From contig CAVYTA010000006.1 of the NCBI GenBank assembly GCA_963771355.1, forward strand, positions 2,464,001 through 2,528,000: a stretch of DNA of 64,000 bases. Direction: 5' to 3'. A model generated the notes under the pieces. The model had not been told where the DNA came from. It saw only the letters and a list, made by a program, of their open reading frames with translations, and searched no databases. The first letter of the stretch is position 1, and the number at the start of each line of letters is the position of its first letter. A program made the translations under genes and the position numbers. Shown in pieces: positions 36,597 to 38,614 of this stretch. This DNA comes from an uncultured Candidatus Rokubacteria bacterium (GTDB lineage Bacteria > Methylomirabilota > Methylomirabilia > Rokubacteriales > CSP1-6).

Positions 36597-37028
36597 TCAG
36601 GCCTCGGGCGGCACGCGCCGCCTGAACACCTTGGCGAGCGCCTCGGGCGCGAGCCCGAGCTGGACGAAGGCCACGCCGGTATCGGCGTACTCGCGATAGG
36701 CGGCGATCTTGCCGCCCGCGAGATCGAACACGCTCATCCCCTTGAAGCGCACCGGCTTGCCCGCGCTGCGCGGGATCGCGTCGGACACCGTGTAGGAGAA
36801 GCGCCACTCCCCCGCCGCGCGGCGGGCATCCTCCACGACATGGGTGAACTCCCAGCGATAGCCCTTGCCCTCGTGGAACATGCGCTCGAACATCTCCCGC
36901 AGCTTCGCGCGGCCCGCGTGGGGGCCGAAGAAGATGTCGTCGTAGCTCCCGTCCTCGGTGAAGCAGTCGACGAGGGCATCCACGTCCTGGCGGTTGAAGG
37001 CGTCGGCGAAGCGGGTGACGATGCTCAT
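36597..37028 (-). CDS. SnoaL-like/NTF2 family protein
   Basis: 'RFADAFNRQD', 'GKIAAYREY.D'. Confidence 0.85.
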   Translation of the reverse strand: MSIVTRFADAFNRQDVDALVDCFTEDGSYDDIFFGPHAGRAKLREMFERMFHEGKGYRWEFTHVVEDARRAAGEWRFSYTVSDAIPRSAGKPVRFKGMSVFDLAGGKIAAYREYADTGVAFVQLGLAPEALAKVFRRRVPPEA

Positions 37029-37516
37029 GGCTCTCTCCCTAGCAGGCGGGGCACCGCCTTCTCGAGGCAGCGGAGGATCTCGTCGCGGCAGAGGCGAAAG
37101 GCGGTCTCACCCTCGCCGGCGGGATCGGCGATGTCGCCCTCCTCGTCCACGAACTCGCGCAGGGTGACGATGCGCCGGCCCGCCGCCTCCGCGAAGGCGT
37201 CGAGCATGAACTTCTGCTGGACGGTCATGGTGAGGATGAGATCCGCCTCCGCGATGAGGTGCCGGTGGCGCTTGAGGTCGGTGGAGGTCATGTCGTCCTC
37301 CCCCAGGTACACGCCGATCTCCTTCAGCGCCAGCCGCGCGTCCAGGGACGGCAGCATGCCGTCGCGGCAGTAGGTGGCGATGCCGCCCGAGCGGATGCGG
37401 TACGGGTGGCGCGCGTCGCGCTCGGTCAGCATCTTCTCGAGGAGGACCTGGGCCATCACGCTGCGCGCGGTATTGGCGTGGCAGACGACCAGCAGCTTCT
37501 GCTCCCCGTCGATCAT
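37025..37516 (-). CDS. Low-molecular-weight phosphatase/ArsC-fold protein
   Basis: P-loop 'VCHANTARS' (CX5R), 'ADLILTM', 'DIADP'. Confidence 0.88.
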   Translation of the reverse strand: MIDGEQKLLVVCHANTARSVMAQVLLEKMLTERDARHPYRIRSGGIATYCRDGMLPSLDARLALKEIGVYLGEDDMTSTDLKRHRHLIAEADLILTMTVQQKFMLDAFAEAAGRRIVTLREFVDEEGDIADPAGEGETAFRLCRDEILRCLEKAVPRLLGREP

Positions 37517-38568
37517 CCCTTGGTGTCGGGCAGCGGCCGGTAGTACGGGTTCCCCTGCCCCACCCACTCGCCCAGCATGGCGCGGAACTGGGGGCCCATG
37601 GGGTCGATGCCGCGCATGGGCATGGTGCCGCGGCGGATGGTGAAGTCATGCGGGGCCAGCTCGCCGCCGCGGACGAAGTGGCGCTCGGCGGCATCTGCCC
37701 GGCCCTGGCGGTAGAGCCACTCACCCAGCCCGAACTCGGCGCGCGCCTGCTGGTCGGCCTCGCCGGGGAGGGGCTGGAGCTCCCGGGCGGAGGCGCCCGC
37801 GGGCAGAGCCGGCGCCTCGCCCCGCACCCAGGCCCGCAGCGCGCCCAGATGCCGGGCCGACTCGAGCCCGGTGATGTGCTTGAAGGTGTCGGTGCCGAAG
37901 GCCACGTCGTTCGGCCGCACGATGCGGCCGGCCTCGTCGATCCAGAACACGGTCGGCACGTTGACGATGTTGTAGAGATCGGCCAGCACGTGGCCCGTGT
38001 CCACCAGCGAGGGATGGCGCGGGCGCGCCGCCTCGATCCAGGGCCGCGCATCCTCCGGGCTCTTGTCCAGCGCCACCGTGATCACCGTGAAGCCCGCGCC
38101 GCCCAGCTCCTCGAAAAGCGCCTGCCAGACCGGCAGGTCGAGGCGGCACCCTCACCAGGACGCATAGGCGACGAGGAGAACCTTCTTGCCGCGGTGCTCG
38201 CGCAGCGAGTGGAGCCGCCCGTCCAGATCGGGCAGCGTGAAGTCGGGCGCCTCGAGCGCGGCCAGGGCGCGCGCGCGGTCGCTCGCGCCCACGCCGAGAT
38301 AGGCCGCCCGCTCCGCGGGGTCGAGCGCGAGGGGCCGGCCCAGCGCCGCCGCCACGGCGGCCAGGTCCACGCCGTCCGCGCTCTCGAGCGCGGCGCCCGG
38401 CCGTACCGGCACGCAGAGCGCGCCGCGGCAGAGGCCCTCGGGCTTGAGCGTCCAGCCGGTGGCCCGCTCGAGCGCCTCGCGCGTGAGGCGGATGGTGTCG
38501 CCGCTCACGCGCGCGGGCACCGTCGCGGGCTTCCCCTCATCGAGGATGGTGAATGTCGAGTCGGTCAT
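37513..38568 (-). CDS. Probable selenoprotein: TlpA/redoxin-like thiol-disulfide oxidoreductase (Sec139, W-U-G-C), 351 aa
   Basis: 'APDFTLPDLDG...KKVLLVAYASW' then TGA (38152-38154) then in-frame 'GCRLDLPVWQ...VALD...NVPTVFWIDE.G.IV'; SECIS-like hairpin follows. Confidence 0.88.
38121..38137 (-). promoter_or_regulatory. Bacterial SECIS-like hairpin
   Basis: CCTGCC-GGTCT-GGCAGG starting 14 nt after the UGA; the GGUCUG apex resembles the E. coli fdhF SECIS. Confidence 0.75.
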
Positions 38569-38614
38569 GGCGTGGCTCCTGGGCGCCGCGGCTTGGGGCG
38601 CGTCCGGATCGTGG

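Follow-up and report, generated by a model that had tools for sequence, protein, structure and literature searches.

Selenoproteins with a U-G-C motif (U, selenocysteine, Sec) on a peroxiredoxin-type domain have been catalogued since 2008, when Zhang & Gladyshev described a 'Prx-like (UGC-containing)' family (pfam00578); the part of their survey available to us gives 46 selenoproteins, commoner in non-marine samples (PMC2398784). Here we analyse a member of this family encoded in a 64,000-nucleotide stretch of DNA (the window; positions 2,464,001 to 2,528,000 of contig CAVYTA010000006.1, assembly GCA_963771355.1), which belongs to a genome most closely related, among named organisms, to Candidatus Rokubacteria/Methylomirabilota. 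It is a well-supported selenoprotein gene, and its function is predicted only.

Reviews of 2022 and 2026 include the UGC-containing family in their available sections, the former listing it as predicted and not experimentally verified. In its available text the 2026 review further describes a metagenome-assembled genome of Methylomirabilota that has 63 genes predicted to encode selenoproteins; Sec use by this lineage was therefore known already. The NCBIfam model NF041054 (WAxxUGC_long, ResA-like WAxxUGC motif-containing protein) describes proteins with the same three-part architecture as the window protein; the motif is not mentioned in the available portion of the Haft & Gwadz preprint. A search that left most subscription papers outside found no functional study of the UGC-motif family, and within the same limit the literature on UGC-containing selenoproteins consisted of surveys or reviews only.

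An in-frame TGA at the active site

The gene occupies positions 37513..38568 of the minus strand (351 codons), with an ATG at 38568, a single internal TGA at 38152..38154 (codon 139) and a terminal TGA at 37515-37513. A ribosome-binding-site-like AGGAG (38576..38580, minus strand) lies 7 nt upstream of the ATG and may serve that function. On the plus strand 37513-38568 gives no meaningful translation, and the coding strand is the minus strand. Read through, the context of codon 139 is KVLLVAYASW-U-GCRLDLPVWQ, giving the motif W138-U139-G140-C141. The original prediction, made from the letters alone, held that one TGA joins two in-frame open reading frames at the active site of a thioredoxin fold (YASW-*-GCR.DLP), that the motif is UxC and not UxxC, and that gene callers would split the gene. 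All three claims were borne out: the alignment shows a CxxC shortened by one residue, and of the 150 best cluster representatives 18 stop exactly at W138 and 43 start past the TGA. The proposed span and TGA position also held; the strand, which had not been given, is added here.

Homologous genes were collected from 110 loci, comprising 29 of the 30 best matches from 41 related genomes, a paralog in the source genome and the best 80 of 564 matches in a species-level collection; L038, a C-terminal fragment, was left out, and removal of 7 duplicates gave 103 distinct genes. Among the taxa named in the titles of their records are Rokubacteria/Methylomirabilota, Chloroflexota, Actinomycetota, Myxococcota and Binatia. 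Homology extends without a break through the TGA, and at the codon originally predicted to encode Sec 98/103 genes have TGA and 5/103 a Cys codon (TGC/TGT). The second residue of the motif, Cys141 (38146..38148, minus strand), is aligned with the second Cys of CGPC and has a Cys codon in 103/103 homologs. At the protein level, WCGC was found in 18/18 full-length proteins among the 120 listed homologs, and the cluster representatives that span the site have C-x-C in 67/76 cases, 61 of them C-G-C.

The source genome (completeness 99.8%) has the Sec machinery whose presence the original prediction left to be checked, with selA (C7:113232-114392), selB (C7:114503-116386), selD (C4:225335-226252) and tRNA-Sec (selC, C7:111447-111540) each over its curated cut-off. 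The tRNA-Sec is one of 62 tRNAs called by ARAGORN (Rfam RF01852, 69.1 bits). selC, selA and selB are grouped on one strand (C7:111447-116386), and selD lies elsewhere, its matched part free of internal stops. Across homologs, selB (E<=1e-60) was found in 48/50 genomes with the TGA form vs 1/5 with the Cys form, a comparison of related genomes of unstated completeness that gives support and is not a formal test. The same 1/5 Cys-form genomes have selA. The 50 TGA-form genomes were chosen from 75 TGA loci, of which 22 Rokubacteria-type loci and 3 further ones were not used.

A conserved hairpin downstream of the TGA

The bacterial selenocysteine insertion sequence (SECIS) model, as given in one figure legend, has a loop of 3-9 nt, a stem of 4-16 bp, a G in the first two loop positions, a distance of 16-37 nt from the UGA and a minimum free energy <= -7.5 (PMC13188914, Fig. 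2 legend), and the apical bases G23 and U24 are conserved in the E. coli fdhF element according to the portion of a second paper available (PMC8659212). The hairpin CCTGCC-GGTCT-GGCAGG, proposed originally to lie 14 nt past the TGA, is present there (38121..38137, minus strand). It fits the published consensus, with a 6-bp stem, a 5-nt loop GGUCU, a spacing of 20 nt and -14.7 kcal/mol for a 36-nt piece.

The pair that flanks the GU/GG apex (G-C in the window, 38131/38128) is Watson-Crick in 96/98 TGA genes: G-C in 64, C-G in 31 and A-U in 1, with 2 unpaired. The proline and next codons that spell it are CCG-GTC in 63 genes, CCC-GTG in 29, CCC-GGG in 2, CCG-GGC in 1 and CCA-GGT in 1, with mismatches in 2; the swaps between G-C and C-G fall at synonymous sites and occur in many lineages. 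Complementary Pro-Val codon pairs make up 92/94 at the hairpin vs 44/114 elsewhere in the same genes, and 1866/6178 (~30%, G-C and C-G only) genome-wide. A pair-count covariation analysis of 94 distinct rows gave 31 double changes vs a shuffled mean of 9.9 (0/500) and 0-2 in slid controls; all 31 are at the apex-flanking pair alone. On a quick IQ-TREE protein tree built with the hairpin codons masked, the C-G state requires 13 changes, and well-supported (starred) branches force at least 5 of these; the swap is therefore recurrent. The stem Leu codon is CTG in 98/98 TGA genes vs 40% elsewhere in these genes. Hairpins of the same shape follow 323/118,203 TGA triplets of the genome and 7/2725 likely true TGA stops. 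Conservation and covariation, not energy, thus provide evidence that the hairpin is functional.

The Cys alleles vary in the same region. One of the five (L081:2452-3480) has a Cys codon with an intact GU-apex hairpin in a genome that has selA and selB, and is probably a recent Sec-to-Cys change; the other four form one tree branch, have lost the GU apex and come from genomes without selA/selB.

Several observations weigh against the reading of the gene as a Sec-containing oxidoreductase. The folding energy is no better than chance (36-nt piece, z -1.66, 14/200 shuffles as good; three longer pieces, z -0.45, 0.09 and 0.14; none of the 4 significant), being ordinary for 70% GC DNA, and for the most part the stem encodes the conserved D-L-P-x-W-Q. 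Five of the 7 stem pairs are invariant and alone uninformative, a single pair covaries, and the outer stem pair is broken in 11/94 rows. CTG at the stem Leu is also found in 5/5 Cys genes, and the pattern used for the background counts was derived from the window hairpin itself. Besides the limits of the selB comparison, the Cys set is only 5 genes from about 2 lineages. The protein also misses the cut-off of NF041054, which is by far its strongest match in NCBIfam (E 9.8e-78, over residues 27-316), with 261.9 vs 300 bits when C is scored in place of U. Finally, no neighbour is common to the phyla, and hence there is no pathway hint; the Nudix and LMWPc-family genes adjacent in the window are near 0/58 other-phyla loci.

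If the TGA were instead a true stop, the locus would be a pair of genes, a pseudogene or the product of an assembly error, and a downstream GTG-started open reading frame of 190 codons, together with the presence of both halves in databases as separate proteins, would fit this. Such a break, however, would fall in the active site and divide the thioredoxin fold, and the TGA is kept across phyla, alternating with Cys only. General reading of UGA as Trp or Cys in this organism is opposed by the finding that TGA is the commonest true stop of the genome (2409/4136 long coding-like frames), and therefore not globally reassigned, and that the sole tRNA with a UCA anticodon among the 62 calls is tRNA-Sec. 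Both explanations are largely refuted and we consider them extremely improbable. Because TGA and Cys interchange at one column, the Sec machinery is present, selB co-occurs with the TGA form and the apex pair covaries, we infer with near certainty that the apparent stop is read as Sec.

Other observations concern the same genome and family. Eight further in-frame TGAs were seen, each at a redox-type motif of a coding-like frame (W-U-T-T-C, T-P-G-U, W-U-P-K-C, C-T-U, three C-x-x-U and N-I-U-T), at C6:1824098(-), C6:246854(-), C6:2320178(-), C6:238416(+), C6:274454(+), C6:1251416(-), C5:32287(+) and C1:160098(+); 6/8 have the same apex hairpin, and on sequence grounds these sites are likely to be additional selenoproteins. 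Tandem TGA-containing copies occur in eleven Chloroflexota loci, mostly Tepidiformaceae/Dehalococcoidia, with the second copy ~1.1-1.2 kb upstream of the match (L090, L093-L095, L097, L099-L103 and L105). One gene 91% identical to the window gene (L045, GC3 0.95) is recorded under an archaeal genus, which is probably a labelling error.

Protein architecture, chemistry and alternative functions

The predicted protein has three parts. The N-terminal domain (residues 1-104; 38257..38568, minus strand) carries C47 and C52 on a predicted beta-hairpin. It had no PDB sequence match at E<=1, and Pfam gave 0 families for the window's domain and single-member weak matches only among 66 homologs. Foldseek returned nothing at E<=0.001 for it, the best match being usher N-terminal domains (FimD, E 0.14, TM 0.44), a lead only. 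The TlpA/ResA-type thioredoxin-fold domain (~residues 105-250; 37819..38256, minus strand) has an invariant N-x-P-T (N203, P205, T206), and the read-through protein matches Pfam AhpC-TSA (61.8 bits, cut-off 26) and Redoxin (45.7 bits) over residues 106-223, spanning the TGA. The C-terminal region (~residues 260-345; 37534..37791, minus strand) is helical in the AlphaFold2 model. The original description of a 'GLCRGALCVP' domain and a helical, TPR-like C-terminus stands for the Cys pair and the helices; the TPR likeness amounts to weak Pfam matches below cut-off (TPR_2, E 0.012, 16.1 vs 27 bits).

The AlphaFold2 model (pLDDT 90.9) shows a thioredoxin fold with a TlpA-type insertion. Its top structural matches are TlpA/ResA/DsbE proteins, with a gap of one residue where U-G-C is aligned with C-x-x-C, and the protein scores far below the cut-offs of the ResA, TlpA and DsbE NCBIfam models. 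No signal peptide was apparent by eye in the N-terminal sequence. The C47/C52 pair is present in 93/103 homologs and absent from 10/103, and is for this reason regarded as an accessory element. The Rokubacteria-type orthologs without it (L020-L024, L061, L070, L073, L082 and L063), mostly through a clean ~40-residue deletion, are natural controls for the role of the N-terminal domain.

Taken together, the locus is very probably one gene in which UGA is decoded as Sec, producing a 351-residue thioredoxin-fold protein that is likely a cytoplasmic selenol/thiol-disulfide oxidoreductase. SelB with Sec-tRNA-Sec would bind the GU apex, 20 nt past the UGA, and deliver Sec, while translation without selenium would stop and leave a 138-residue fragment. 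U139 would take the place of the attacking Cys of a CxxC redoxin, U-G-C corresponding to C-G-P-C minus one residue. Its selenolate could attack a protein substrate at a disulfide or an oxidised cysteine, C141 acting as the resolving thiol that brings about release via a Se-S bond. Re-reduction may depend on the thioredoxin reductase system (a thioredoxin reductase is encoded in the source genome, over cut-off), and the helical C-terminal part would probably select partners. Judging from the fold, we lean towards disulfide reductase or isomerase chemistry. Woycechowsky and Raines are said to have described, in 2003, a CGC variant of thioredoxin with disulfide-isomerase activity.

In the window the gene stands in a same-strand run of a Nudix hydrolase, the selenoprotein gene, an LMWPc-family gene and a SnoaL-like gene. 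The start of the LMWPc-family gene (37025-37516, minus strand) overlaps the selenoprotein stop by 4 nt, and its product has an unusual P-loop, C-H-A-N-T-A/C-R-S, kept in 28 related loci. Among close, Rokubacteria-type orthologs a Nudix gene is near in 25/32 loci and an LMWPc-family gene lies <=2.5 kb from the TGA in 27/32, a linkage that fits shared ancestry. A short-chain-dehydrogenase-like neighbour (32 loci, named by eye) was too generic to serve as a functional clue. One study of rhizosphere RNA contains near-identical short contigs in four of its rRNA-depleted runs, at a depth of ~2-6 and with neighbouring genes similarly covered; no RNA piece among those listed extends 31 letters past the TGA in both directions, and transcription is not counted as evidence.

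Other activities of the same selenoprotein have to be weighed against a disulfide oxidoreductase. It could be mainly a peroxidase of peroxiredoxin or glutathione peroxidase type, in which peroxide oxidises U139 and C141 or the N-terminal Cys pair resolves the product. AhpC-TSA is the best Pfam match, there is a weak GSHPx match (E 0.0013, residues 110-164), and A-S-W-U-G resembles the glutathione peroxidase motif A-S-x-U-G. GSHPx (18.8 vs 27 bits) and BCP (18.5 vs 140 bits) are nevertheless both below cut-off, and the catalytic motifs PxxxTxxC and Sec-Gln-Trp-Asn were not seen. The name 'Prx-like' chosen in 2008, as it appears in the available part of that work, also points this way, and we consider a peroxidase possible though unlikely. 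Less likely again is a bacilliredoxin- or glutaredoxin-like activity, in which U-G-C strips S-thiolated proteins of a small thiol through a one-thiol mechanism. BrxA/BrxB, which have a thioredoxin fold with a CGC motif and reduce S-bacillithiolated proteins, are a precedent (PMC5444506, available in part). This is opposed by the genome, which at 99.8% completeness has no match to the bacillithiol synthesis gene bshC (a control found bshC in 3/14 genomes) and no gshB over cut-off. Of the matches listed for the window protein in Pfam, NCBIfam and the structure comparison, none is to a Brx/UPF0403 protein.

Thioredoxin-coupled ArsC enzymes use the low-molecular-weight (LMW) phosphatase fold, and a further explanation makes the selenoprotein the dedicated reductant of the downstream LMW-phosphatase/arsenate-reductase-fold protein, or a protein handling metals or metalloids via Sec and three Cys. 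The 4-nt overlap, the linkage in close orthologs and a weak match to NF010053 speak for it. The LMWPc-family gene is absent, however, from 58/58 other-phyla loci and 13/13 more distant copies (in flanks of 1.5-5 kb), which makes shared ancestry the explanation of the linkage, and 1-2 kb separates both genes in most loci; we find this explanation doubtful, slightly more so than a dethiolase. Still more tentative is a self-contained four-chalcogen relay, in which C47/C52 would pass electrons to the compressed U-G-C centre, dedicated in Rokubacteria to the translationally coupled LMW-phosphatase/ArsC-fold neighbour. If this were true, phosphatase signalling or arsenic handling would be under the control of a selenium-dependent redox switch.

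Relation to described families

The disulfide oxidoreductase proposed here differs from TlpA/ResA/DsbE proteins (e.g. PDB 3gl3, 2f9s) in having U-G-C where they have C-x-x-C, extra N- and C-terminal domains and no apparent membrane anchor or signal peptide. With the bacilliredoxins BrxA/BrxB (YphP/YqiW, UPF0403) it shares a comparable arrangement, their CGC active site being likewise placed on a thioredoxin fold. Compared with NF041054, the window motif is Y-A-S-W-U-G-C, and seven Cys-form homologs also score below its cut-off (211-275 bits), while the same-genome paralog (L039; C6:406679-407755, plus strand, TGA at C6:407084) passes with 300.2 bits. This paralog is 43% identical to the window protein, has a different C-terminal part and carries the hairpin apex C-GU-G. 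The window protein looks like a member of a sister subgroup to NF041054, with a different C-terminal part.

These comparisons bear on annotation, since halves cut at the active site account for 61 of the 150 best cluster representatives and the NF041054 cut-off, which could rescue split genes, excludes this subgroup. The family as a whole is widely distributed among bacteria of soil and sediment. For what SelB reads, the G-C/C-G swaps next to the GU apex offer a clean natural test, and Sec-to-Cys loss could be studied in the ready series of Sec, Cys-with-SECIS and Cys-without-SECIS alleles.

The closest described relatives remain those of the 2008 survey. The GOS 'Prx-like (UGC-containing)' family combines a pfam00578 domain with a UGC motif, both also found in the window protein. 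By eye, entries in the available part of its Dataset S1 have S-W-U-G-C-x-x-D-L/V-P-x-W-Q, an N-terminal GLC...C and a helical C-terminus like those of the window protein, and include evident homologs of all three domains and both C-terminal types (no alignment score). We saw no difference of kind; the members described in 2008 are reads from marine and aquatic samples, and the window gene comes from a Rokubacteria/Methylomirabilota-related genome. The UGC-motif family and its NCBIfam model were thus known already, and this is not a new kind of system; what is added to them is covariation evidence for the SECIS apex pair, a tie of the Cys alleles to Sec-machinery loss, and a subgroup below the NF041054 cut-off.
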